From: Promethearchaeota archaeon
GTDB lineage: Archaea > Asgardarchaeota > Lokiarchaeia > Sigyniarchaeales > SOKP01
Direction of reading: 5' to 3'
Assembly (NCBI GenBank): GCA_048940765.1
Contig: JBHLOG010000003.1
Span: forward strand, 456-64,455
Length of the DNA stretch: 64,000 bases
Under the pieces are notes generated by a model. The model had not been told where the DNA came from. It saw only the letters and a list, made by a program, of their open reading frames with translations, and ran no database searches. The translations under genes and the position numbers were made by a program. Position 1 is the stretch's first letter. Each line of letters opens with the position of its first letter. This document shows positions 35,701 to 53,880 of this stretch, in pieces.

Positions 35701-37137
35701 TTAGAAAAAATTATCAATAAATTCATTGTCTTTTATATATTTCAAATTGTTTTGTATATAAACCGTTTCTAACTCCTTTAAAGCCTCAGATTTGAATGTT
35801 TTCAAATCATTAAAAAACTTATCTTTTAATTGACTAATTTCCTTTCTAAATACTTTAATAGGATTTACTGGTTTATACCATCCATTTGTTGCCAAAATCC
35901 ATTTTCTCTTTTCTAATATATTAAGGGCATTATTGATCTCTTGTTGATCTCTTTTAATAATAGAACTCAACATAGATGGATCAGCATGTTCTAAGGAAAG
36001 GAGTGTAGCATAAACTCTTGCCTCAAGTTCGGTCGCCTTGAATAATTTCATAGATGAGATTACTTTTTCATTTACATGGACAACTTTCAATTTTTTCTTC
36101 AAGGAAATATTCTTAATTTTTGAGAGATCTATTTGATTACTCATTATAATTTTTTTAGATTTTAAAGCATCATTAAATATGTTCATACCAACATCAGAGC
36201 GAATGATAATACTATTCCATGAATTTTCAGGAGCTCCAATACTACCAATAGATATATCTGAAAATTCAGCAGTATAATCTTTACAATATTGACAACTTGA
36301 CCAACTATATTTTTTAACAGACTTTATTGGAGTGTTCTTTATACTTCCATCTTTCGAATAGATAATAAAATTACCTTGTGATATATCCAGTTTTTTCACC
36401 TCACTAATTGGCATTCCAAATTCTTTTTGAATTATATCTCTCATTGAATCATAACTATAATTTGATGTACAATAAAGTCCAATTATTAAGTTAAATTTGC
36501 TATATTCGTCTGAAATTGGAGGAAAAAATTGAAGTTTGCGTGCTGCTTGAATTTGACATGGCATACCTACAAATGCAAGTTTTTTTAGTTTGTATTTATT
36601 AACAGCATCTCTATAAGTTGATAAAGTAGGTGCCAATGCATATACAGAACCTGTTGCTTCTAATATTTCTTTTGAAGTTCTTGCTATAATGGGTTTTGGC
36701 TTCCAATTTTCATCTTTACTCGTAAGAAGAGCTCCATCAATTATTCCTTCATTAAGAGCATGAATAAGTATTGAAGTTACAGCTCCACCATTTTGTGATG
36801 CCTTTAAAATATTCTCATTAGTACTTTTAGCAAGAACAGCTTTTTTATAATGTCCAATTAAAAGATCTTTGATAGTACGCTCAGAAAAAATTTCCTTCTC
36901 AAAAAATCTTTCTGGAAAATAAGTTTTTGCACAATATTTATAACATAAAGAACATTCTGGGTCATAATCTAAAAGTGATGGCTCATCTTCATTTATTCCA
37001 ATACGAGGACAAATTGACATACAAGTTCCACATAAAACACAATTTTTTTTACTTATAACTAACTCATGTAAATCTTGGAACCCATATTCAGAGATATCAC
37101 AATGAAAATAATCCTTTATTAACTCCCTAGGTATCAT
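35701..37137 (-). CDS. Ferredoxin-FrhB (F420-binding) protein fused to a C-terminal TrmB-like winged helix
   Basis: CVLCGTC, NGGAVT, VGMPCQ, IGLYC, CQYCKDYTAEFSDISIG; tail ELEARVYATLL...INNALNILEKRKWI...YKPVNP is TrmB-like. Confidence 0.8.
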   Translation of the reverse strand: MIPRELIKDYFHCDISEYGFQDLHELVISKKNCVLCGTCMSICPRIGINEDEPSLLDYDPECSLCYKYCAKTYFPERFFEKEIFSERTIKDLLIGHYKKAVLAKSTNENILKASQNGGAVTSILIHALNEGIIDGALLTSKDENWKPKPIIARTSKEILEATGSVYALAPTLSTYRDAVNKYKLKKLAFVGMPCQIQAARKLQFFPPISDEYSKFNLIIGLYCTSNYSYDSMRDIIQKEFGMPISEVKKLDISQGNFIIYSKDGSIKNTPIKSVKKYSWSSCQYCKDYTAEFSDISIGSIGAPENSWNSIIIRSDVGMNIFNDALKSKKIIMSNQIDLSKIKNISLKKKLKVVHVNEKVISSMKLFKATELEARVYATLLSLEHADPSMLSSIIKRDQQEINNALNILEKRKWILATNGWYKPVNPIKVFRKEISQLKDKFFNDLKTFKSEALKELETVYIQNNLKYIKDNEFIDNFF

Positions 37138-37491
37138 TTTTAAATATTCACCTTTTAGAAAATTTATATTATTATAGGATTTAATGATGATTTTATCGAG
37201 AATACCATATAATATATATCAATTAAGACATATAAATGATCCATCTTGATATATCAATCTAGAAATTGTTGCATTTAACATATAAAATTATAAAAAAATA
37301 ATGATAATGAGTTTGGTATTATAGATACCATTTTCTAAAAATAAAAAAAATGATATATCTACTCGAGTTAAATAAAAAGTTGGAAAATCAAAGATAATAC
37401 CTTTGATTTTCACCAATTTAAAATAATATTATATAAGTTATTTTGTAATTTACAATTTTATCTAATTTTTAGTTTCTTAAGATAATTGTTA

Positions 37492-37752
37492 TTAATCTCC
37501 TTCTCTTTTTTTTCTATGCTTTATTTTTGCATCCAATCCCTCTTTAAGATTAGTTAATTTTGTAGAAAAATTTAAATCTATGTTCCAATTGTCTAAACGG
37601 CTACTTTCATTATTAATTTCTTGTCGATTATTAATGAGATTCGCTGGATCTAATGAAAATTGTGAGAATTCTGGATCTTCGTTATATTCGTCATCAGATT
37701 CTTTAATAAATTTTTCAGATCCAATTTTATAATCTGTATTTTCTTTTTTCAT
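37492..37752 (-). CDS. Small hydrophilic hypothetical protein
   Basis: 86 aa ORF 12 nt downstream of the previous minus-strand gene; no recognised motif. Confidence 0.45.
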   Translation of the reverse strand: MKKENTDYKIGSEKFIKESDDEYNEDPEFSQFSLDPANLINNRQEINNESSRLDNWNIDLNFSTKLTNLKEGLDAKIKHRKKREGD

Positions 37753-37764
37753 TAAAAATGGCCC

Positions 37765-39672
37765 TTATGTGTTAATTATATTCAATTCAAAATGTCTTGT
37801 ACTATTTCTTTTTATCTCTGCTAGCTTCTCTATTTTTGTTTGAAGCGGTTTCTTATCTCTGAAGCTTTTAACTTCAATTAAACCATCCTTAATGGCACCA
37901 TTAAAGATTTTTTCACCTTTCTTTGTTCTTAAAATTACAGATGACCATCCAATTTCAGATCCTATCGACCCTACTGAGATATCGGCCAATTCTGCTGTAA
38001 AATCACTACAGTAATTACAAAAATCATAACCATATAAATCACAATCCTTTAGAGGATATGAAAATATCTCACCTGATTCAAGAGTTAAAACAAATTTTCC
38101 ACTAGTTATATCCATCTTAACTATTTCATTGATATTAACACTAAATTTATCACTAAAGAGTTTAAGAATTTTCTCATAAGGAAAAGATTCTCTACAGAAA
38201 AGGCCAATTTTATATTTTATATTACTTAAAATAGGTAATTTAGCAGGGAATAATTCTCCTTTAAAAATTGCTTTAATTTTACATGGTAAGGCAACTATTG
38301 CTATATTTTTATATTTGTCAATCTTATCCAAAACTGACAACATAGGAGCATGAACATAGGTACTACCTGCTGTTTTGTATAAATCCATTAAATTTTCAAT
38401 TATACTAACTTCAGGTTTCCAAAACTTTTTTGAATGTCTAATCGTTACTACTGCATCTACTAAATTTTTGGACAATAAGTAATAAAGTAATGAAGTTACG
38501 ATACCACCATCCTGTCCAACTTTTTTTATTCCATATTTTAATGTCTTTGCAGAAGCAATATATTTATAATACCCTAGAAGATTAGAATATTTTAACGAAG
38601 TATCAGATTTTCTAATAAACTTTTGTAGATTATCAATTGAAAAAGACTGAGGACAAACACTATAACAAAGACCACAATTAATACATTCCCCTTCATCAAT
38701 ATATAAATAATTTTGTGTTAGTTCAATACAATTAATAGGACAGATGGCTGTACATAAGCCACAATGACAACAAATGCTATATTCTTGAACCGAAGAGACT
38801 GATTTGAAGTAATTCTGTTTATAATTATCTAAATTTTGTATAACTTTGTATCTATAAAAAGGTTCTTTTAATTTTAATAATTTAGTTTGATCTGTTATTT
38901 TTTTTTCCGGTATTTCTGTAAAAATTTCTTCAATATAACCTTGTTCTATTAAATAGAAAATATCTCGAATGATACTCGTTTCTGAAAAATCAAAAATGGC
39001 TAATATTTCATCTAATGTTAATGGTTCATATCTTTTCAATTCTCCAAGAATATATTTTCTTGCCGTTTCGGCATCAAAAATCGAACTAATTAAAAGATTA
39101 AGCCTATCTTCCTTGTATTTTCCTAATTCTAAAATTTTTTCTTTTGCCTTGAAAAGCGATCTATAGTGATAATTAAATGAAGCTTCATAAGTTGCATATA
39201 ACAATTTTTTTATTGGAATTGAATCGAAACTATAATTATAATCAGGTTTGATATACACTCTGTTAATTCCATTATTGATTGGATTTGGTCCAATCTGAAT
39301 TAATCTTCGAAAAAATTTCTCAAAAGCCTCACTTAATTTCTTATGGTTACTTCTATTAAAAATAAAAGTTTTTATTCTTTGATTACTTAAACCCCTTCGT
39401 TCTAAAATATGATTAGTTTCTTCTGCTGATTTAAAGAAGAAATCGAATTTGGATACTAGTTTATTTCTTTCTATCTTTCCATCAATTATTACAAATATAC
39501 CATCAAATCCTTGATAAATTGTTTTTAATAACTCTGTTATATCTAGTGAACCTAAATTTCCCATTTTAGTTATTTTAACCGAATTTACTCCTTTGAATTT
39601 TTTCATCAAAGGATAATCAGATTCGTTATATGTGTATCCTATGCTTGAGAATATCATGATTTTGTATTCCAT
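37765..39672 (-). CDS. Fusion: Cys-less MvhD-like domain, winged helix, ferredoxin, FrhB
   Basis: N-terminus KIMIFS...GFDGIFV echoes MvhD; ILGELKRYEPLTLDEI...IIRDIFYLIEQGYI is wHTH-like; CCHCGLC, CINCGLC, DGGIVT, LPCK, GLFC, CNYCSDFTAELADISVG. Confidence 0.75.
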   Translation of the reverse strand: MEYKIMIFSSIGYTYNESDYPLMKKFKGVNSVKITKMGNLGSLDITELLKTIYQGFDGIFVIIDGKIERNKLVSKFDFFFKSAEETNHILERRGLSNQRIKTFIFNRSNHKKLSEAFEKFFRRLIQIGPNPINNGINRVYIKPDYNYSFDSIPIKKLLYATYEASFNYHYRSLFKAKEKILELGKYKEDRLNLLISSIFDAETARKYILGELKRYEPLTLDEILAIFDFSETSIIRDIFYLIEQGYIEEIFTEIPEKKITDQTKLLKLKEPFYRYKVIQNLDNYKQNYFKSVSSVQEYSICCHCGLCTAICPINCIELTQNYLYIDEGECINCGLCYSVCPQSFSIDNLQKFIRKSDTSLKYSNLLGYYKYIASAKTLKYGIKKVGQDGGIVTSLLYYLLSKNLVDAVVTIRHSKKFWKPEVSIIENLMDLYKTAGSTYVHAPMLSVLDKIDKYKNIAIVALPCKIKAIFKGELFPAKLPILSNIKYKIGLFCRESFPYEKILKLFSDKFSVNINEIVKMDITSGKFVLTLESGEIFSYPLKDCDLYGYDFCNYCSDFTAELADISVGSIGSEIGWSSVILRTKKGEKIFNGAIKDGLIEVKSFRDKKPLQTKIEKLAEIKRNSTRHFELNIINT

Positions 39673-39978
39673 TATGATTACCTATTTTAGTAATAGTATT
39701 CCAATTTGATATTTTTATACATTATTTGTCATATAATTATTATGCAAATCGATCATTTATATGTTAGTATTGATAAATTGTACTATATAAAATAAGTAAT
39801 TCCACTGCTAGAAATGTTAATATAATAAAATTTAAAACAAGAAAAATTAAAAATATTAACTTAAACTAATAAGATATTGTCTTTTAAAGCTTCATTTTAT
39901 CATTTAAATATTAAGATTTAGATGATTTATTTCATAGAAAAATTAGTTTAATTTCTGAATTCCTTTAAATAAAAAAAA

Positions 39979-40245
39979 TTAGGCAGAAATATTTATTTCC
40001 CTACTAAATATTATATTTCTAGCTTTTTCAAAAGCTTCATTATAATCAAAAATTCTTTTTTCCTTTGTAATCACAACTTCTCTTAAAATTAAAGCTTCAA
40101 CTTCTGATTTAAGTCTATCAACGGTTAATGCTCCTGTTCGATTTATAGTTCGATAAATTTCTTTATTATTATCTTTAGGTTTTAATCCCTCAATTCAATA
40201 AGGAGTAATTAAATTTATGTCCATGACAATTTTATTTTTTAATTT
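39979..40245 (-). pseudogene. Remnant of the 3' end of an Mtd-family gene
   Basis: Reads KIVMDINLITPY*IEGLKPKDNNKEIY...GALTVDRLKSEVEALILRE...IFDYNEAF, colinear with the C-terminus of 62483-63469; TGA at 40195-40197 replaces Gly. Confidence 0.8.
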
Positions 40246-40323
40246 GTATATAGAACATAAATAACAAAATAATTTCTCACCAAAGAATTTTCCTATTTTC
40301 GTATTTATAATATTAATTTCAAT

Positions 40324-40410
40324 CGAACATTATTCGGTAATACATAAATTTAAAAATACAACATACGGTAATAACCATCTTTACCGAACTATCTTCGATA
40401 GATTTAAATA
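40324..40410 (+). promoter_or_regulatory. Three phased CGAA-N5-TTCG-type sites plus TATA box
   Basis: Sites start at 40324, 40355 (degenerate) and 40385; TTTAAATA at 40403-40410. Confidence 0.6.
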
Positions 40411-40540
40411 ATACTGATCATATATATCATATTAGAGAAACTATATTATTGCTAAATAATAAAAAAAAACAAAAATGAAATTTATTCAGATTGAATTAAT
40501 ATAAATTTATAAATTAAAAAATGCAATTAATAGAAACGAG

Positions 40541-41134
40541 TTGATTAATATAGTAACCTGTCCCAAATGTGGAGAAGAATACTCATTAGGTAGAAGAATT
40601 TATCATGAATGTGAAGGCTTTTCAATTGAGCATGGTGTAATTTTTAATGATGATCGACAAAATCGTCCTTGGAATTGCGTTTCTATAGATGAAACAGACA
40701 AAAAAATTTTGAATATATTACAAAAAAATGATAAGGTTTCATATCGGGAATTAGCAGATAAACTACAATTAGCAGCTAGCACAATTCATAATAGAGTAAA
40801 AAAGATGATTGAAGAGGAAATAATTAAAGAATTTGCAGCTATTGTAGATCCTGTGAAAATTGGATATAATACAATTGCACTAATAGGCCTATCAGTTGAT
40901 CCACTAAAAATGAAAGATATTGCAAGTAAGATTGCTTCCTTTGAAGAGACTCAACTTGTTGCAGTTTCATCCGGAGACCATGATATTATTGCCCAAATCA
41001 TTGCTAAGGATGAAAAATCACTTTGGAATTTCATTAATATCAAAATCAAGACAATAAATGGAATAAAGCCTCAAATTCATGTATCAAACTTTTTAGACAT
41101 ATACAAATCTACAAGTTCAATAAAAATTGCTTAG
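40541..41134 (+). CDS. Lrp/AsnC transcriptional regulator with N-terminal CPKC zinc-ribbon-like extension
   Basis: IDETDKKILNILQ...SYRELA...STIHNRVKKM, SGDHD RAM domain. Confidence 0.88.
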   Translation: MINIVTCPKCGEEYSLGRRIYHECEGFSIEHGVIFNDDRQNRPWNCVSIDETDKKILNILQKNDKVSYRELADKLQLAASTIHNRVKKMIEEEIIKEFAAIVDPVKIGYNTIALIGLSVDPLKMKDIASKIASFEETQLVAVSSGDHDIIAQIIAKDEKSLWNFINIKIKTINGIKPQIHVSNFLDIYKSTSSIKIA

Positions 41135-41184
41135 TAGTATTAAAACTAAACAATTTTCAATAATTCTTTTACTTTATTTCCTAT

Positions 41185-41640
41185 TTATTCATCTTCAAAA
41201 TGTTTTACCGTAATAAACCAAAAATTCACTATTGAATTAACAATTTTATAAAATTGCTTCATTTCTAAAGGTTTAATTATATAACAATTAGCATGGAGAT
41301 TATAAGCTCTAATTAAATCATCTCGAGCATCAGACACAGTTAAAATGACTACTGGAATTCGTTTTAATTCTTCATCTTTCTTAATTTCTTCCAATACCTG
41401 AAAACCATTTCTTTTCGGCAAGTTTAAGTCCAAGAGGATCAAGTTTGGTCTATTGACATTGGAATATTTCCCTCGCTTTTTTAAAAATTCAATGATTTCA
41501 ATACCATCTCTTACTACGTCTAAACTTTGTACAATCTTGCTCTCTTGGAGAACTTCCTGAATTAAACGAATATCTGCGGCATTATCTTCTACCAGTAAAA
41601 TTCTTGCTTTTACTCTTTTATTTCCAACCATAATTTTCAA
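41185..41640 (-). CDS. Stand-alone response regulator (Rcp1-like REC)
   Basis: ILLVEDN, ILLDLNLP, VVILT, ANCYIIKP. Confidence 0.92.
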   Translation of the reverse strand: MKIMVGNKRVKARILLVEDNAADIRLIQEVLQESKIVQSLDVVRDGIEIIEFLKKRGKYSNVNRPNLILLDLNLPKRNGFQVLEEIKKDEELKRIPVVILTVSDARDDLIRAYNLHANCYIIKPLEMKQFYKIVNSIVNFWFITVKHFEDE

Positions 41641-41643
41641 TAA

Positions 41644-42702
41644 TTAATCTCTATTTTTTTCGGCAATAATTGTAAAATAAAAAGTTGATCCTTTTCCAAA
41701 TACTGAATCTACCCAGATTTTTCCACCATACCTTTGGACTATTTTTTTACATATTGGTAATCCTATCCCTGTACCTGGATATTCTTCTTTAGTGTGCAAT
41801 CTATAAAAAATATTAAAAAGTTTATCAAAAAATTTTGATTCAATTCCTATACCATTATCTTCAAATGAGAATAACCATTCATTATTGACCTTCTTTACTC
41901 CAATATGTATTTTAGGTGGTTCTTGCCTTCGGAATTTTATAGCATTACTAATTAAATTTTGAAATAATTGGATAAATTGAGTTTTGTCAACTTTTAGTAT
42001 TGGCATTTTGTCATGAGTTATAATTGCACCGCTTTCTTTAATTGATTCGTGGAGATTAAATAACGCTTCATTTAAAATCTTCTCAAGGTTTAATAATCTT
42101 GAAGGTTGGGCGTGTGTAGTTATTCTTGAATAGGATAATAGATCTTTGATAAGAGTATTCATTTTTTTTGCCCCATCTGTAATAAAGTGAATGAATTCTT
42201 TCCCATCCTTATCTAATTTATCTTGATATCTATCTTCTAGAAGTTGAGAAAAGCTTACAATTGCTCTTAAAGGTTCTTGTAAGTCATGTGAAGCTACATA
42301 CGCAAATTGTTGTAAATCCTCATTTGAACGCTTTAAATCTTCCATTATTTCATTGAATTCAATTTCTCTTTTTGAGACATGTTCAGAGAGGAATGAAACA
42401 ATTATACCCACTATTATTAAGGAGAATGCTCTTAAAAAGTTATTAATTAACTCTAAATTAAAGATACCATTTTCAGGAATGATATTAAAAATAATTAAAA
42501 TTACTGCTAAAAAGACAGATATAAATAAACCTTTTTTTTTCCACCATAAACAAGCTAGTATTGAAGGAAAATAAAAAAAGTGTGCTACCAATATAGATAT
42601 TCTGAGGATAATCTCGAAATAATATATTAAAAATAAGGAGATTATCAACAAAATTAAGATAATTAGCATTCTTATTTTTTCATCCTTAAATTTCAAGTTC
42701 AT
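41644..42702 (-). CDS. Membrane-bound sensor histidine kinase
   Basis: About four N-terminal TM segments; ASHDLQEPLR H-box, NLISNAIK, DNGIG, GTGIGL. Confidence 0.93.
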   Translation of the reverse strand: MNLKFKDEKIRMLIILILLIISLFLIYYFEIILRISILVAHFFYFPSILACLWWKKKGLFISVFLAVILIIFNIIPENGIFNLELINNFLRAFSLIIVGIIVSFLSEHVSKREIEFNEIMEDLKRSNEDLQQFAYVASHDLQEPLRAIVSFSQLLEDRYQDKLDKDGKEFIHFITDGAKKMNTLIKDLLSYSRITTHAQPSRLLNLEKILNEALFNLHESIKESGAIITHDKMPILKVDKTQFIQLFQNLISNAIKFRRQEPPKIHIGVKKVNNEWLFSFEDNGIGIESKFFDKLFNIFYRLHTKEEYPGTGIGLPICKKIVQRYGGKIWVDSVFGKGSTFYFTIIAEKNRD

Positions 42703-43059: not shown

Positions 43060-43953
43060 ATAGAAAAAAAAAGCCTTGATATCCTATTGATTGAAGATAA
43101 TAAAGCTGATGTTCGTCTTATTGAAGAATTATTAAGAACTTCTGAAGATTTCAAATTTAAATTAGAATCAAATCCTAGACTTTTTGAAAGTCTTAATCGT
43201 CTTGTAGCTAAAAAGTTTGATATTATCTTATTAGATTTAACTCTACCTGATAGTGATAGAGAATCTACTTTAGAAAGAGTTTTAAATTTTACCAGCACAA
43301 TTCCTATAATCATTCTAACTGGATTAGATGATAAGGATTTCGCTTTAAAATCTCTTCAGAAGGGTGCTCAGGATTATATTGTAAAGGATGATCTCAATGG
43401 ACCTAGTCTAATACGAGCAATTTTATATGCCATTGAACGACAAAAAATTGAAACTGAAAGAATAGTAGATAGACTCCCCAAGATACCATTTGATGAAAAA
43501 GATAAAGAAATTCTTAACTTTCTGCAGGAAAATTATAAAATTTCTTATAAAGATTTGAGTAAACAAGTGAATTTAGCCGCTAGTACGATTCATAATAGAG
43601 TACAAAATATGATCAAAGAGGGGATTATAAAAAAATTTGATACTTTTGTAGATCCATTTAAAGTGGGATATCAATCTATGGCTATTCTTGGTCTTTCAAT
43701 AGATCCTTTGAACTTAGATAATATAGCAAGAAAACTCTCCAAATATGATGAAATACAATTAGTTGTATCTTCTACCGGTGATTATAATTTAATATTGAAA
43801 ATTATTGCTAAAGATGAAAAAAATCTTTGGAGATTTATTAATGAAGAAATTAAAACCTTAGATGGAATACAATTACCAGTGAATGTTTCAAGCTTTATAG
43901 ATATTTTTAAAATGACTAATAGAATAAAATTTAAAACTATAAAAGAAGAATAA
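43060..43953 (+). CDS. REC-Lrp/AsnC fusion response regulator; probable ATA start
   Basis: (M)EKKSLDILLIEDN, LLDLTLPD, LTG, YIVK followed by an Lrp HTH and RAM domain; GGTGA 6 nt before ATA 43060. Confidence 0.88.
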   Translation: MEKKSLDILLIEDNKADVRLIEELLRTSEDFKFKLESNPRLFESLNRLVAKKFDIILLDLTLPDSDRESTLERVLNFTSTIPIIILTGLDDKDFALKSLQKGAQDYIVKDDLNGPSLIRAILYAIERQKIETERIVDRLPKIPFDEKDKEILNFLQENYKISYKDLSKQVNLAASTIHNRVQNMIKEGIIKKFDTFVDPFKVGYQSMAILGLSIDPLNLDNIARKLSKYDEIQLVVSSTGDYNLILKIIAKDEKNLWRFINEEIKTLDGIQLPVNVSSFIDIFKMTNRIKFKTIKEE

Positions 43954-45572: not shown

Positions 45573-46877
45573 TTAGTGTGTAGCACACGAAATACAAGGA
45601 TCAAAAGCTCTAATTATCATTTGAATATTTTTTTTAACCAAATTATAATCACCTGTTTTTTCAAATAGTTCTTGAGCATAATTTGTAATCATACGGTTAA
45701 TAATAGGAATATTGAACTCTGTAGCAACAAAAAGTTTAACTCGATCAATAACATTACTTTTATTAAGGTGGTAGTGATGGAGTAATATCCCCCTTGGTGC
45801 TTCAATAAGACCTATTCCGTCAGATCCTTTAATTGAATCTAAGGATGGAAGTTTTTCTTTAAGATTTAAACAAGGATCATCTAAAATTTGTATCCCTTGA
45901 TAAGATTCGATATACATTTCTATTAAACGTATAAAATTCGTTAATAGTATATTATTTTTCCATTTTTTTTCAAAGGATTCAAAAGAAGTACTAATTTGAT
46001 CAATTCCATAGTTCTCAACAATATTAAAACGAGAAAAGGGACCAACAATTACATTCCTTTTATTTTCGAAATAAAAATCAATTCCACGTAAATCAATTTC
46101 TTTACCAAAGTAAGAAGAATATTTTTGTTTTTCAAATTCAATTACGTTTTTATTATTTTCTTTAAGTCTTAAAGAACCTACATATCTATCATAATTTCCA
46201 TTATTAGTTAATCCTAAAGATATATAATTTGGTATTTCAAATTCTCTTGGAGGAATCTGATCAGCAAATAATTCAATTACTTTTTCTATTATCCATTCTA
46301 AATTAACCAGTGATTTTTGTAAATTTCTTTTAGCCAATGTAATGTTTTTTTGTGAAGGAGAATAGATAATACCTCCTGGAATTGGTGAAAGCAAATGAAC
46401 AGATCTACCACCAAATAATTCATTTATTTCATTTCCAATTTTGATTAATTCATATAAATTGGTTGTTAATTGAGGATTATATTTTACTAATTCGTAAGGA
46501 GATAACAAATTTTGACTAATATTAAAAATTTTCAAGAGATCTGGTAAATTTTGGAAGAAAAAATTCATTGAATGAGATTTTATTAATTCTCCTATCATTA
46601 AAAGGCGTCTTAAAAGAACACTTTGATTTGAAACCTTAATGTCATAAATATCTTCTATTGCTTTACAGCTTGCAATTGCTTGAGATGCGTAACAAAGTCC
46701 ACATATTCGCGAAACTATTTTCGGAATATCTAGTAATTGCTTTCCTATTAAAAAATTTTCAAATCCTCGATATACATCAAATTCAAAATTCACTAATGAA
46801 ATTTCATCATTTTGAACTAAGATTTTTACTTCTCCATGACCCTCAACACGTTGACAAATGTCAACAACTTTCAACAT
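45573..46877 (-). CDS. [NiFe]-hydrogenase large subunit (group 3-like), ending at the L2 His
   Basis: RVEGHG, RICGLC (L1), EAPRG, DPCISCATH-stop (L2). Confidence 0.88.
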   Translation of the reverse strand: MLKVVDICQRVEGHGEVKILVQNDEISLVNFEFDVYRGFENFLIGKQLLDIPKIVSRICGLCYASQAIASCKAIEDIYDIKVSNQSVLLRRLLMIGELIKSHSMNFFFQNLPDLLKIFNISQNLLSPYELVKYNPQLTTNLYELIKIGNEINELFGGRSVHLLSPIPGGIIYSPSQKNITLAKRNLQKSLVNLEWIIEKVIELFADQIPPREFEIPNYISLGLTNNGNYDRYVGSLRLKENNKNVIEFEKQKYSSYFGKEIDLRGIDFYFENKRNVIVGPFSRFNIVENYGIDQISTSFESFEKKWKNNILLTNFIRLIEMYIESYQGIQILDDPCLNLKEKLPSLDSIKGSDGIGLIEAPRGILLHHYHLNKSNVIDRVKLFVATEFNIPIINRMITNYAQELFEKTGDYNLVKKNIQMIIRAFDPCISCATH

Positions 46878-46881
46878 TTTT

Positions 46882-47640
46882 TTACCCTCTAAATTTTGGT
46901 TTTGAAAATCGATAAAAAATACCTGTATAACTTTTAAGCTCCTTTGATAATTTTATCAAACTCAAATAATTAATAAGATTTGAAGTAAAGTCTTTTGATA
47001 CTGAGCCCATACATCCTTCACAAGGAAGTCCTATTGTTATACATTTATGTTCACATCCATCTCTAGTAATTGGACCCAAACACAAAATACCCTTTTTTAA
47101 AAAGCATTTAGGAACCTCTTCATCTAAGCTAATCTCTTCTGGATTTGGATTAATTTTAGATATATTAACTTGGCTATTAATTCCAAAATCTTCTCGAATT
47201 GGGCAAGTTGCACACATATTTTTTTCAGATAACGTAATCTCTTTATTCTCAACCAATTTAATAATACAATTTCCAAGAAGCTTTGAAGGAGGAGGACACC
47301 CTGGAATAATTCCATCAATTTCAACATAATTGGAGATTGGTAATGCTTTTTTTGTATTTGAAAGACTTAAAATTCCACCAAAACTAGCACAGGTTCCTAG
47401 CGCATATACCTTTTTTGTAACTTTTCTTATATTCTGAAGAATTGGGATTTGTGTTTCTTCAGATATACACCCTTCTATCAGAGCAATATCACAATCGTCA
47501 ATCTCATCTATATCTGAAATAAAGTTAAAATACGTTATCCTTGTTCTTTCTAAGAATTGGGGGAAAATATCTAAGGACATAAGAGTTGAGATACATCCAC
47601 TACATGAAGTTAAAGACATTATTATAAATCTACGCTTCAT
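46882..47640 (-). CDS. [NiFe]-hydrogenase small subunit (MvhG-like)
   Basis: SCSGC, EG, GTCASFGG, PGCPP, CATC, CF, CLGPIT..GC, PCEGC. Confidence 0.88.
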   Translation of the reverse strand: MKRRFIIMSLTSCSGCISTLMSLDIFPQFLERTRITYFNFISDIDEIDDCDIALIEGCISEETQIPILQNIRKVTKKVYALGTCASFGGILSLSNTKKALPISNYVEIDGIIPGCPPPSKLLGNCIIKLVENKEITLSEKNMCATCPIREDFGINSQVNISKINPNPEEISLDEEVPKCFLKKGILCLGPITRDGCEHKCITIGLPCEGCMGSVSKDFTSNLINYLSLIKLSKELKSYTGIFYRFSKPKFRG

Positions 47641-50179
47641 ATTTTACATCCTCTTTTAATTTATTAAAGAAACTATTAGAAATTTCAGCAAATTTTACAC
47701 CTTCTACAGCATTCATATGTTCAAGTAATATTCGATCTTTATATTTTGGTGTAATAATATCTTTTAATAATCTAATTTTATTTCCTATTTTTTCAATTCC
47801 ATCAATGTACCGACAAGCATCTTGTCTACAACCAACGATCATTACTCCATCAAAACCCAACTCAAATGATTTAATTATAAAATTAGTATCAATCCTTCCC
47901 GTACATGGAACTCGAATTATAAAAGTATTTGGATTATATGAAATTTTCTTAAGTCCGGCATCATCAGCAGCAGCATATCCACAAGAACTACAACAGAAGG
48001 CAATAATTTTTGGACTTGCTCTAAATTTTGAAAAAGCTTTAATTGTGGCCAATATTTTTTCAGATGTGTCGATATTTAAGTCTATTGCATTAGTAGGGCA
48101 GATACTAGCACATGTACCACATCCCTTGCATTTAAATTTATCTACACTTATTTTATCCGATTCTATTGTAATCGCATTATAAGGACAAATTTTAAGACAT
48201 AATCCACATAAACCACATTTATTTTCATTAATTTCAATTCCGCTAAACTCTGCGATTAGGTGATCCTTCGATAGTAATGAAATGATTTTTAAAGCACAAT
48301 TATTAGCCGTTGAAATTGTAGAATTATAATCCAATGGACCAAAAATTGTACCAACACCATAAATACCAGATGCCAACGTTTCTTCACTCATAAATCCGTT
48401 ATCATCCAAAGTAAAATCCATATATTTTCTTAGATTTTTTAAATCTTTATTAGGGATATATTTTAGATTTAAAATTATTAAATCACTTGGAAATTCGATA
48501 TTATCAGCAACAACATAATTTATATCTTTATTAGTTTCAATAGAAATTTTATTAGCATATAAAAATCTTGGATTAGTTGATCTTAATAAAATCTCATCCT
48601 TATTTTTCAGTCTACTTAAATCATAAAAAACATTAACTTCGCAATCAGGATTTCTTATTTTTATATCTTCAATATATTTTTGAGCTAAAATTTCCGAGTA
48701 ATGTGCCAGATATTTTGAAGGCCCTACTTCTTGAATAATAGAAATCGAACTTAAGGGTTTTTTATCTGATAATCTTAAGAGATTTCCTTCAGTAATTCCA
48801 TCAGAAGATAACATTCTTTCAAATTCAGCAGATGTTATTATATTTTTTTGGGGATTATAATGATAATCCTCTAAATCTTCGTATAAATCAGATCCAATCG
48901 CAATAACTTTTGCACCAACCTTAATCTCAATTTTTTCTTCTTTTTGAGTTAAATCTATAGCTTTATTCGCGCATGCACGTTCACAAATTCTACAGTTAAT
49001 ACATTTATTTATATCTCCTTTATCAATTATAGGAGCAAAAGGATAAGAATGTATAAAAGGGATATATATTATTTTTCGATTAGTTAAACCATATTCATAT
49101 TGATTTTGCTTTTGTATACTACAAACTTCAATACATTGTTTACACCCTGTGCATTTTTTCACGTCAACAAAACGAGGTTTTTTAATTAAACTAAGAGTAA
49201 AATTACCTACTTCTCCTGATACATTTTCAATCTCAGTATTAGTATAAATTTTTATATTTTTTTGGTTTGTTAATTCGCTTATTAATTCTGAAATAAAACA
49301 TATTGAACAATCACCCATTTGATGGATTCGATGCCATCTTGCTATTTTACCTCCCAATGTAGGTGATTTCTCAATAAGATAAACCTTAATCCCAGCACGA
49401 GCTAAGTTTAATGCGAGTGTAATACCAGCAATCCCACCACCTAAAATAGCACAACTCTTTTCTACTTCCACTCTTTTTACTTTTACTTTCTTTTGAATAT
49501 ATACGCGCTCAACTGCCGCTTCAATTAATAATTTAGCTTTTTCCAATGAAAGTAAAGGATCTATTTTATTCATTTTGGCTTGATGAACCCAACAACATTG
49601 TTCTCTAATATTTGCTATCTCAATATTTGCACGCTCAATAATATCTTCAAAGATTCGTTCAAAAAGAAGTTGATGCGTCTTTGGGGAACAAGCAGCTATA
49701 ACAATCTTATTTAAAAAATTATCTTTAACCCAATTAATAATTTTTTTAAAATTCTTTTCTTGACATAAATTATCAAAAACTTTTACTGAAACTACTTTTC
49801 TTAATTTATTTATATAATTTTCTAAAGCAGTAATATTAATTACACTTGAAACTTCTGTATTACAATTGCAAATAATTACTCCAATTCGGCTTATTTCGCT
49901 CCCCTTAGTTTCTAAATATTCATCAATATCTTCTCCGGATAAAATCCTTTTGTTCAGATTAATAATTTTTAACACACGTTTACCATCTTCCGTAAGAAAG
50001 TACGATTTTTTGTCTTTACCTATCAATGAACCTATCTTTTTAAGATGAAAATTTAGTTGTCCAGTTGTTTCTAAACCAAGTCTTTCCATTAAATCTGTAT
50101 AAGGGATATAACCCTCCTTTTCTAAAAGCAATAAGATTTTTCTCCTAAATGGATGAGATAAAATTGAATATATATCCAC
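47630..50179 (-). CDS. Fusion: ArsR-like winged helix, HdrA-like flavoprotein (degenerate core), MvhD
   Basis: LSHPFRRKILLLL...YTDLMERLG..TGQLNFHLKK...YFLTEDG; then IICNC, AACSP, NIREQC, GGGIAG, DCSIC, two ferredoxin pairs; C-terminal AFCCSSC, VPCTGR, GCRQDACRY. Confidence 0.85.
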   Translation of the reverse strand: MDIYSILSHPFRRKILLLLEKEGYIPYTDLMERLGLETTGQLNFHLKKIGSLIGKDKKSYFLTEDGKRVLKIINLNKRILSGEDIDEYLETKGSEISRIGVIICNCNTEVSSVINITALENYINKLRKVVSVKVFDNLCQEKNFKKIINWVKDNFLNKIVIAACSPKTHQLLFERIFEDIIERANIEIANIREQCCWVHQAKMNKIDPLLSLEKAKLLIEAAVERVYIQKKVKVKRVEVEKSCAILGGGIAGITLALNLARAGIKVYLIEKSPTLGGKIARWHRIHQMGDCSICFISELISELTNQKNIKIYTNTEIENVSGEVGNFTLSLIKKPRFVDVKKCTGCKQCIEVCSIQKQNQYEYGLTNRKIIYIPFIHSYPFAPIIDKGDINKCINCRICERACANKAIDLTQKEEKIEIKVGAKVIAIGSDLYEDLEDYHYNPQKNIITSAEFERMLSSDGITEGNLLRLSDKKPLSSISIIQEVGPSKYLAHYSEILAQKYIEDIKIRNPDCEVNVFYDLSRLKNKDEILLRSTNPRFLYANKISIETNKDINYVVADNIEFPSDLIILNLKYIPNKDLKNLRKYMDFTLDDNGFMSEETLASGIYGVGTIFGPLDYNSTISTANNCALKIISLLSKDHLIAEFSGIEINENKCGLCGLCLKICPYNAITIESDKISVDKFKCKGCGTCASICPTNAIDLNIDTSEKILATIKAFSKFRASPKIIAFCCSSCGYAAADDAGLKKISYNPNTFIIRVPCTGRIDTNFIIKSFELGFDGVMIVGCRQDACRYIDGIEKIGNKIRLLKDIITPKYKDRILLEHMNAVEGVKFAEISNSFFNKLKEDVKYEA

Positions 50180-51843: not shown

Positions 51844-53880
51844 ATGTCTGAAAAACAGACCATTGCTAGAATCGGAGTATATATTTGTAGATGAGGAGTT
51901 AATATAGGGGCTAGCATTGATTGTGATATTATTAGAGATTATGTTGAAGCACTCCCAAATGTCATAACTGCTAGAGTAAATGATTTTACTTGTAGTGATC
52001 CAGGCCAAAATATTATCAAAAACGATATTTTGGATTTAAATTTAAACCGAATAGTTGTCGCTGCTTGTACACCAAAAATTCATGAATCCACTTATCGAGC
52101 AGTTTTAGCTGAAGCAGGATTAAATCCATATTATTTTCAAATGGTAAATCTTCGTGAACAATGCTCGTTTACATCTTCAAGTAATAAAAGAGATACTACT
52201 AAAAAAGCTATAAGATTAGTACAAGCAGGTATCAATCGTGCTCGAGAATTAGAGATTGTTCCTCATAAAAAAATTTCAGTAGAGAAATCAGTATTAATAA
52301 TAGGTGCGGGAATTGCTGGAATGAATGCTGCATTAGATTTAGCCAATCAGGGAGTTAGAGTTTTCTTAATCGAAAAAGAGGCAACTATTGGGGGAAAAAT
52401 GGCACAATTAGATAGAATTTATCCTACAGACGATTGTGCTATATGAGTTCTGGCCCCTATAATGGTAAATGCTTCAAAACACCCAAATATAACCCTTCTT
52501 ACTTATAGTGAAATTATTGGATTTAGTGGTATTCCTGGTAAATATAATATTAAAATAAAGAAAAATCCACGTTATGTTAATGAAAAAAAGTGTACTGGAT
52601 GTGGATTATGTACCACAAAATGTCCTATAACAGTACCTAATGAATTCAATCGAGGTATTGGTGAACGTGGTGCAATCTATATACCGTTTCCTCAAGCTGT
52701 ACCTAAAATTGCGATAATTGATAAAAGTGTGTGTATAGAATGTAAAAATTGTCAAAGATTGTGTCAAGCAGAAGCAATTGATTTTGATCAGGTACCAGAA
52801 TTTATTGATATAAGCGTAGGTGCTGTAATAATTGCCACAGGATGGGATGAGTATCCAATTATGAAAAATAATGATTATAGATATGGAATTTATCCGGATG
52901 TAATTACTCAAATAGAATTAGAGCGAATGTTAAGTCCGGTTGGACCAACAGGAGGTCATGTATATAGAATTTCTGATGGAAAAATCCCAAAAACAGTAGC
53001 TATGATTCAATGTGTTGGTTCGAGATCTTTAAAAGGAAATCCTTATTGTTCAGGAGTATGCTGTAATGTTGCTCTTAAGAATGCTCAACTGTTAAAACAA
53101 GAATATCCTGATATTAATATTGCCATCTTTTATATAGATATGCGTACATGGGATAAAGGGAATGAAGAGTATTATAGAAAAGTGAGAGAAGCAGGAGTTA
53201 TGATGATTCGAGGAAAAGTTGGAGATATACGCGAAGATCCATTTACAAAAAACCTTAAAATTACAGCTTCTTCAACATTAACAAATGATATGATTACTAT
53301 GAATACAGATCTCGTTGTACTGTCAACAGGTATGGTCCCTTCTAAGAATACAATAAAATTAATTGAGACGCTAGGTTTAAGTAAAGATATTAATGGATTT
53401 TTATCTGAAGTTCATGGATGCCTAAAACCTCAAGAAACGAATAATATGGGCATTTATATTTGTGGGTGTGCTGCTGGACCAAAAAATATCCCATATTCGG
53501 TATCAACAGCATTAGCTGCAGCCAGTAAAACATCCACATTACTTTCAAAAGATGCAATCGTCCAAGAATTGATTATTGCTGAAATAAATGAAAATCTATG
53601 TATCGGCTGCCATAGATGTGAAAAACTATGTAATTATAAGGCTGTTATGGTAAATGGAGATAATATTGCAGAAATAGATGATTTGAAATGTAAAGGATGT
53701 GGTGTTTGTGTATCATCATGTCCTGCTAGAGCGATTGATCTTAAATATTATAGAGATAAACAAATTATTGAAGAGATAAAAGGCATTTGTAATACTGAAC
53801 TTGAATATAAAGAAGAATATATTGAATCTATTGAACTTGTTTGGAAAAAGATTGAAGCATTAGCTCCTTATCAAACTTAA
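51844..53880 (+). CDS. hdrA: Heterodisulfide reductase subunit A, selenoprotein with two Sec (U17, U201), 678 aa
   Basis: Single frame from ATG 51844 to TAA 53880 with TGA at 51892-51894 (IGVYICRUG) and 52444-52446 (PTDDCAIUVLAP); both positions are Cys in the neighbouring HdrA paralogues; SECIS-like hairpin follows. Confidence 0.9.

Follow-up and report, generated by a model that had tools for sequence, protein, structure and literature searches.

What does an archaeon do with a protein in which an enzyme-like redox module runs in frame into the fold of a transcription regulator? The question is raised by one gene in a 64,000-nucleotide (nt) stretch of DNA from a Promethearchaeota archaeon (GenBank assembly GCA_048940765.1, contig JBHLOG010000003.1, positions 456 to 64,455), hereafter the window. 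The gene (35701..37137, reverse strand) is an intact open reading frame (ORF) with an ATG start and encodes a protein of 478 amino acids (aa) that joins a ferredoxin-like domain, an FrhB-type F420-reductase domain, and a tail related to TrmB regulators. A preliminary description of the sequence proposed a one-component transcription factor sensing the F420/F420H2 ratio. The anatomy behind this idea held up well in our analysis, but the proposed function found little support. Instead, we see about an even chance that the protein is a soluble F420:iron-sulfur (Fe-S) oxidoreductase, resembling FpoF or the zeta subunit of acetyl-CoA decarbonylase/synthase (ACDS), with a TrmB-derived tail that serves mainly for dimerisation.

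Domain anatomy and predicted dimer

The N-terminal ferredoxin-like domain (residues ~20-90; 36868..37080, reverse strand, as for all domains of this gene) gave weak Pfam Fer4 matches at residues 27-45, and is also recognised from invariant Cys motifs and from its alignment with the two-[4Fe-4S] ferredoxin domain (1-83) of ACDS zeta. The F420-reductase domain (residues ~94-351; 36085..36858) is supported by Pfam, NCBIfam, and structure, with FrhB_FdhB_N (PF04422) at residues 101-173 (2e-24, 85.9 bits vs a cut-off of 22) and FrhB_FdhB_C (PF04432) at residues 185-333 (1.1e-40, 139.4 bits vs 23.3). Among NCBIfam models, the protein scored above the cut-off of PRK09325 (FrhB; 274.2 bits vs 269) and under those of the frhB equivalog TIGR03289 (254 vs 331.5) and FpoF NF040616 (171.3 vs 475). 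Across 39 aligned homologues, the motifs CxxCxxCxxxCP (C33/C36/C39/C43) and CxxCxxxC (C62/C65/C69), the residues C194, C223, C282, and C285, and the motifs SCxxCKD, QNGG (Q115/G117/G118), GSxY, and PCQ were all invariant. C194, C223, C282, and C285 align with Cys of 6qgr_B and 8riu_B, and we take them to be cluster ligands. The ferredoxin/FrhB module was therefore as intact as the preliminary description had judged it, both in its domain scores and in its cofactor motifs.

The closest solved relative by sequence was 8riu_B (2.1e-59, residues 21-352, identity 32%), and FrhB 6qgr_B matched at 9e-57. An AlphaFold2 model built with the 39 homologues as input reached a pLDDT of 85.6 and a pTM of 0.83. 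In structure comparison (Foldseek, VIA-align), residues ~7-355 matched F420-reductase modules: 8riu_B, its alignment extending over residues 7-425, gave Z 39.9, with a root-mean-square deviation (rmsd) of 2.4, 336 residues aligned, and a TMt of 0.82; FrhB chains matched the redox part at Z 33-35. Across the family of fusion proteins, pairwise identity in the FrhB core was 0.59-0.60.

The frame then continues through a poorly conserved linker (residues 352-368; 36034..36084), which contains a helix at 357-366 and lies within the predicted dimer interface, into a TrmB-type winged helix (residues 369-426; 35860..36033) and a long amphipathic helix (residues 427-464; 35746..35859). The model shows a three-helix winged helix (H1 370-382, H2 387-394, H3 398-410) with a hairpin at 414-423 (strands 414-417 and 420-423), followed by one helix at 426-463. 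Pfam placed TrmB (PF01978) at residues 369-422 (7.3e-07, 29.4 bits vs a curated cut-off of 25.6), and the same family matched 35/35 tails from independent loci at E <= 0.01 (best 1e-10). A profile of these 35 tails matched Pyrococcus furiosus TrmB (3qph) at 2.8e-05 (profile positions 5-100, chain positions 4-105) and TrmBL2 at 8e-05. By structure, residues 355-465 found TrmBL2 (5bqt_B) as their top match (Z 14.6, rmsd 2.1, 110 aligned), and the next matches were other winged-helix proteins, mostly regulators, at Z about 10. Family profile, model, and structure comparison thus agree with the earlier view of the C-terminal region as a TrmB-like winged helix and coiled coil read in frame with the enzyme. 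The domain order is reversed compared to TrmB regulators, with the redox module (1-351) first and the winged helix (369-426) after it.

Modelled alone as a homodimer, the tail reached an ipSAE of 0.75 vs 0.01 for the best of three controls. Of 30 proteins solved as same-chain pairs, 20 attained this value, compared to 1 of 23 that were solved as single chains. Between runs, at least 90% of contacts agreed, and the partner pLDDT was at least 84. As TrmB-type dimers have already been solved, resemblance to them may account for part of this score. The predicted interface comprises residues 353-365, 377-383, 423-427, and 430-463, with F441 facing F441', while H3 and the hairpin/wing lie outside the confidently placed interface residues. 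The tail is thus predicted to form a homodimer in which the long helices pair as an antiparallel coiled coil, like that of TrmB with its pairs F81/I91' and F84/L88' (PMC4158304). What is conserved in the tail is its hydrophobic core and this predicted interface. The invariant residues E433, K449, L456, N463, and N464 lie on the long helix or directly after it, and the interface accounts for most of the invariant tail residues (E433, K449, L456, and the N463/N464 region).

This architecture is not confined to one genome. Among the matches listed, at least 120 homologues were 456-493 aa long, and 93 carried a precomputed PF01978 match. Given these homologues and the PF01978 match in all 35 tails, the fusion is real, and an assembly or frame artefact is excluded. 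Homologues and related loci came from sources named as Lokiarchaeota/Promethearchaeota and as Thor-, Heimdall-, Hod-, Borr-, Sif-, and Hermodarchaeota. We compared the best 80 of 140 stretches encoding relatives, one genome per species (L001-L080). In L001-L046, 43 loci had the tail, two were cut by a contig end before it, and one (L040) was a tail-less paralogue; the records of these 46 loci bear Asgard names, apart from eight labelled merely as uncultured archaeon. L047-L080, from ANME-1, Methanosarcinales, and related groups, matched residues 17 to about 350 only.

A search for the architecture, as had been suggested at the outset, recovered the same fusion at near-constant length in other Asgard archaea. 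Strong matches to the tail profile (E < 1e-20, frames mostly 470-505 aa) occurred in 50 of 400 Asgard genomes, comprising 44 of 135 genomes in the window's own family (the source genome included) and 5/5 and 1/31 in two other families. Within the source genus, 23 of 53 other genomes had a match. Several genomes of 97-100% completeness gave no tail-profile match, so the fusion gene appears to be old but patchy. Twelve weak matches (1e-10 to 1e-14) were ordinary TrmB-like proteins of 245-275 aa. Searched alone against 1.84 billion representatives, the tail returned 20 matches; the top ten, which we inspected, were same-family fragments or full-length members, and the sole clearly unrelated protein among the 20 was a weak match to a 325-aa repeat protein.

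The nearest known systems share parts of this design. Like zeta of the F420-reducing CODH/ACDS, solved as chain B of 8RIU, and FwdI, chain E of 8RJA, the protein has a ferredoxin domain followed by an FAD/[4Fe-4S] F420-reductase domain. According to the report on zeta from Ca. Ethanoperedens thermophilum, residues 1-83 make up the ferredoxin domain, which binds two [4Fe-4S] clusters; residues 84-349 are the F420-reductase domain, which holds FAD and a single [4Fe-4S]; and residues 350-370, a C-terminal extension, form the homodimer interface (PMC11493965). In our model, the TrmB tail begins where this extension sits and would likewise be a C-terminal dimerising element, but it is a 125-residue winged helix and coiled coil rather than a 20-residue extension. 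With FrhB of the F420-reducing [NiFe] hydrogenase, the protein shares the FrhB_N/FrhB_C core, in which both the Cys and the flavin-loop motifs are conserved, and with FpoF of the F420H2 dehydrogenase it shares the N-terminal ferredoxin domain. Unlike either, it falls below the equivalog cut-offs, has no FrhA/G or Fpo genes adjacent to it, and carries the extra TrmB tail.

If the protein works as a cofactor-complete soluble module of the FpoF, ACDS-zeta, and FwdI kind, its flavin site would exchange hydride with F420, and the [4Fe-4S] cluster of the FrhB core and the ferredoxin domain would pass single electrons to or from a partner, which could be ferredoxin or a docked Fe-S enzyme. The winged helix and long helix would be kept mainly as a domain-swapped antiparallel coiled-coil dimeriser, in a role analogous to that of zeta's short extension.

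F420 itself is a plausible ligand, judging from the homology and from the genome. Genes for CofG (382 bits), CofH (461), CofD (306), and CofE (264), all above curated cut-offs, are encoded in the source genome. FrhB-family proteins also occurred in control genomes that lack F420, including Synechococcus and Bacteroides, and in organisms without F420, certain members of the family work with other partners. The Cof genes agree with an F420 review, which states that Lokiarchaeota carry the full F420 pathway (PMC8498797).

The FrhB core is widely reused in this organism. FrhB_C has 17 matches in the source genome, where its fusion partners include GltD/NfnB-like, NAD-binding/DHODB-FeS, MvhD-like, and other modules, so FrhB appears to be used there as a plug-in redox module. 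The GltD/NfnB-like fusions (Fer4_20 + Pyr_redox_2) are 925 and 822 aa long, and the NAD-binding/DHODB Fe-S fusion extends over 603+ aa before a contig end cuts it. The FrhB_C loci L081-L088 lie on source-genome contigs C35, C63, C29, C149, C265, C44, C37, C153, and C139. One of these paralogues (L084; 496 aa) has a 159-aa C-terminal tail of no known family, which was considered as a TrmB relative and ruled out as unrelated.

Conservation of the DNA-reading surface

A TrmB fold that reads DNA should be distinguishable from one that only pairs proteins by the surface it keeps. The DNA-binding residues of TrmB defined by mutation are Y50 and D51, and MreA, a working regulator of the same family, has Ser/Leu at these positions (PMC4158304). 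In the tail profile alignment, N402 and N403 align with Y50 and D51. Among 39 family members, the five commonest residues were R (11), N (6), Y (6), K (4), and Q (3) at position 402 and N (17), D (7), R (3), K (3), and T (3) at position 403. The Tyr was therefore kept in 6/39 and the Asp in 7/39.

As a control, we used a canonical TrmB-family protein of 297 aa from the source genome (contig C104) together with 30 orthologues, 50-100% identical, taken from that genome's Asgard family. In the control regulator, the Y50/D51 positions were Y in 30/30 and E in 30/30, and both G-R-I-Y-E in H3 and R-P-K at the wing tip were invariant (30/30). In the joint alignment, the wing tip of the displayed fusion tails was three residues shorter, at the control's SRPK/RPK, so that the basic residues there are deleted.

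Pairwise identities followed the same pattern. At the exposed H3 positions, identity was 0.71 in the control (30 sequences), 0.25 in the fusion family (40 sequences), and 0.43 in the window's own clade (5 sequences). The corresponding values were 0.71, 0.22, and 0.53 for the wing and 0.69, 0.45, and 0.67 for the whole winged helix. By contrast, the other domain of each protein gave 0.55 in the control (its C-terminal domain), 0.59 in the fusion family (the FrhB core), and 0.74 in the window's clade (the FrhB core). Exposed H3 and wing are thus the least conserved parts of the fusion protein, whereas they are among the most conserved parts of the control.

Because the surface that would read DNA is the least conserved part of the protein, the tail more likely pairs two copies of the enzyme. 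It is here that the preliminary description loses ground: the domains it named are present, but N402/N403, the short wing tip, and the low H3 and wing identity speak against the sensor function it proposed, and a transcription factor sensing F420 is weakly supported by the sequence. The idea is weakened rather than refuted, since MreA also lacks the Tyr. Compared to TrmB regulators (3QPH, TrmBL2 5BOX/5BPD, MreA), the protein shares, in our model, the winged helix and the amphipathic dimerising helix, which in TrmB likewise pairs as an antiparallel coiled coil (PMC4158304). It differs from them in its C-terminal winged helix, its N/N at the Y50/D51 positions, its wing that is three residues shorter, its lack of a sugar-binding effector domain, and its poorly conserved DNA-facing surface.

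Upstream elements and gene neighbourhood

In the window, the fusion gene has 354 nt of non-coding DNA on its 5' side and a convergent feoB on its 3' side. Considering ORFs of at least 80 aa, we found 186-1116 nt of non-coding DNA 5' of the gene in 40/40 loci and at least 21 nt 3' of it wherever a downstream ORF could be called (37/40). Given these gaps on both sides, the gene is monocistronic in the surveyed loci. A Shine-Dalgarno-like box, GGTGA, lies ~10 nt 5' of the ATG and is kept in 3/4 of the closest aligned relatives.

A TATA-like box, GATCATTTATATG, with GATCA in front, lies 104 nt 5' of the ATG (37229..37241, reverse strand). Orthologues of the Loki-like clade carry GATCATTTATATG, in some copies slightly varied, ~95-110 nt 5' of their ATG. 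A second copy with similar flanks is found at 39751-39763 on the forward strand, 79 nt 5' of the neighbouring gene at 37765-39672 and facing away from it. It points into 868 nt (39673-40540) that look like gene debris, with no ORF reaching 60 aa. The 12-mer GATCATTTATAT has 9 copies in the 4.04-Mb source genome vs 5.4 expected, two of which are in this island, before the fusion gene and its neighbour; these are the only copies that precede related genes. The shared GATCATTTATATG could stem from duplication of a promoter or could be an operator common to both genes. For GATCATTTATA, we counted 18 copies in the source genome vs about 15 expected from composition; the other 16 sites were at unrelated places in the genome, few with a gene start close on the 3' side, and no regulon could be defined from them.

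Mini-ORFs 5' of the gene in the window (MDHLYV...PIII and MVFSIKSSLNPIII) were rejected as leader peptides because they are not conserved as frames in L001, L002, L003, and L013. Another clade of 12 loci has a 28-codon hydrophobic mini-ORF 5' of the fusion gene, at about -245 to -90, in 11/12 (L008, L009, L016, L018, L019, L024, L032, L034, L035, L036, and L043), with the consensus MISNNTATRTLVRVLISLSIIIVVVLII; L037 has a 13-bp repeat only. This conserved frame could encode a leader peptide or a one-helix membrane peptide. After it, a 13-bp inverted repeat (GCGAAACAAATCC / GGATTTGTTCGC) flanks a TATA-like box, with a third partial copy ~45 nt further on. The repeat showed 13 predicted pairs, four with compensatory changes, and a covariation term of only -0.66, and it may be an RNA hairpin or a DNA operator. 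Mini-ORF and inverted repeat are absent from this window, and Rfam and tRNA scans of the window found nothing.

The redox island of the window spans 37.7-63.5 kb, and on the other side of the fusion gene lies an iron/Fe-S cluster of genes (FeoAB, DtxR, NifU, Mrp, radical SAM). Such an island, with Hdr, Mvh-type hydrogenase, MvhD, FrhB paralogues, and an MtdB-like gene, recurs often: the fusion gene was in or beside one in at least 20/46 loci, in varying order and orientation. About 20 loci had none of the window's neighbours.

The nearest redox gene (37765-39672, reverse strand) encodes a second FrhB protein of 635 aa with an MvhD/FlpD-like domain, a winged helix, two [4Fe-4S] clusters, and FrhB. 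Its winged helix is of DeoR/HTH_11 type (residues ~200-250), with HTH_DeoR in 8/8 orthologues (best 5.4e-06) and an invariant RD. The MvhD-like domain matched FlpD in 8/8 orthologues, and its N-terminus reads MIFSS where MvhD carries cluster cysteines. Paralogues of ~500-510 aa that lack the MvhD part are found in most genomes of the genus. This type of neighbour often adjoins the fusion gene and is divergent from it in seven loci. Of the 11 genus genomes that have it (nine intact, two split into two genes), nine also have the fusion; the two neighbour-bearing genomes lacking the fusion are 86% and 88% complete, and the genomes are related rather than independent observations. Directly 3' of the neighbour is an 86-aa ORF (37492-37752, reverse strand) with no Pfam match, which recurs at the same position in L011, L014, L031, and L044 at 36-41% identity.

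A third winged helix is carried by an HdrA-MvhD fusion of 849 aa (47630-50179, reverse strand; DUF7347 at its N-terminus, 4.2e-10, and a weak HTH_24), so three redox proteins in the window have such a domain. Immediately after it come both subunits of a [NiFe] hydrogenase, the small one (46882-47640) and then the large one (45573-46877; both on the reverse strand), and this three-gene order is kept in L002, L003, L006 (large subunit cut by a contig end), L011, and L022. Elsewhere in the island, an HdrA gene (52030-53880, forward strand) that appears as ORFs of 138 and 472 aa is one frame with an in-frame TGA at codon 139 (DDCAIU), in keeping with the selenocysteine-containing HdrA already known from Asgard archaea (PMC11227280). 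At 43087-43953 (forward strand), a receiver domain is fused to a complete Lrp/AsnC regulator (HTH_24 + AsnC_trans_reg). Its neighbours are a histidine kinase, a separate, unfused receiver, and another AsnC protein (40541-42702), and the fusion recurs with kinase and stand-alone receiver in L001, L015, L021, and L030. Finally, the source genome has 11,813 GATC sites vs about 21,500 expected from base composition, a shortfall suggesting that a restriction or modification system directed at GATC is being avoided.

Competing readings and their meaning

Several findings weigh against an enzyme whose tail only dimerises. The gene is solitary in 40/40 loci with changing neighbourhoods, which fits a regulator or a stand-alone enzyme better than a fixed subunit. 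Unlike zeta and FwdI, it stands by itself in a window whose ORFs, scanned with Pfam, included no genes for carbon monoxide dehydrogenase/acetyl-CoA synthase or Fwd, and no partner enzyme was identified for its product. Enzyme activity and F420 binding are attributed to the protein by homology. The complete winged helix is retained in 35/35 tails, although dimerisation needs the helix alone. R411 does not vary among the homologues, and the aligned position of TrmB and TrmBL2 is basic too. A sub-clade of nine sequences keeps the Tyr (EIIYN) with an exposed H3 identity of 0.65. H3 and wing together are net positive in 32/39 members (mean +3.1), and H1-H2 is net negative, a pattern expected of a surface that faces DNA; however, this charge does not discriminate, as by hand count the corresponding stretch of the control regulator carries only about +1.

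We weighed these points for a regulator in the manner of PutA, a reading that we regard as rather doubtful but worth taking seriously. In it, the flavin/Fe-S module would read the F420H2/F420 or ferredoxin state, and the linker and coiled coil would alter how a TrmB-type dimer binds operators, both at the promoter of its own gene and at the redox genes nearby. The tail is, after all, a true TrmB homologue whose H3 and wing the predicted dimer leaves free, and MreA regulates without the Tyr (PMC4158304). The gene is always monocistronic behind a long 5' region, the second winged-helix FrhB protein often lies next to it, and both genes are preceded by a copy of the same motif. Sub-clades also have H3 signatures (INN, IYN, VRN/D) and upstream elements of their own. 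However, these signatures and motifs follow the phylogeny and so give no evidence of co-evolution, and the shared motif contains a TATA box, may be a duplicated promoter, and led to no wider regulon. The DNA-reading face and wing are the fastest-evolving parts of the protein, the opposite of what a canonical TrmB regulator of the same lineage shows, and the basic wing-tip residues and Y50/D51 are not kept.

Enzyme and regulator could also be one and the same. PutA and BirA are enzyme-repressor fusions, or trigger enzymes. Archaeal RbkR is reported to be another (PMC5397151). Our protein likewise combines an enzyme module and a DNA-binding-type domain in one chain, but for these three, DNA binding and conserved operators have been demonstrated, whereas the fusion is known from sequence and models. 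It is unlikely, in our estimate, that the protein functions as an F420/ferredoxin-linked flavoenzyme and also, through its TrmB-type dimer, binds DNA in one redox state only, coupling expression of the redox island to the F420/ferredoxin pool. If it did so, lineage-specific operators or binding without sequence preference would be possible, and a DNA-binding trigger enzyme would most plausibly be found in the sub-clade that keeps the Tyr.

The least probable account makes the winged helix a protein docking surface, or a sequence-independent tether to DNA or the nucleoid, that brings the F420 module to the MvhD-like-winged-helix-ferredoxin-FrhB protein and the winged-helix HdrA-MvhD hydrogenase subunit of the island. 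The three winged-helix redox proteins of the window, the recurrent association with redox islands, and TrmBL2, the tail's top structural match, being a chromatin protein are in keeping with it, but we consider it improbable because order and orientation relative to the winged-helix redox genes vary, about 20 loci do without the window's neighbours, and a fast-evolving surface is as hard to reconcile with a conserved docking partner as it is with a conserved operator. A dimerising oxidoreductase, using F420 as its probable substrate and ferredoxin or an Fe-S enzyme as its probable partner, therefore remains our preferred interpretation.

The preliminary description knew of no characterised fusion of FrhB and TrmB, and we likewise found no description of one in the main text of openly accessible papers. 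To our knowledge, no regulator reads the F420 pool, and none turned up in that literature. Asgard redox metabolism (Hdr/Mvh, the Wood-Ljungdahl pathway, and F420) is central to models of eukaryogenesis, with little biochemistry so far. If the tail binds DNA, the family would be a new class of redox sensor, and if it does so as a trigger enzyme, the protein would be the first transcription factor to respond to F420, as well as the first regulator of this sort described from the closest prokaryotic relatives of eukaryotes. If the tail does not bind DNA, it would clearly exemplify a DNA-binding domain put to new use as the dimeriser of a redox enzyme, and annotating regulators by a PF01978 match alone would mislead. 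Either way, these proteins make up a previously undescribed family of soluble F420-type oxidoreductases, present in ~1 in 8 of the Asgard genomes sampled.

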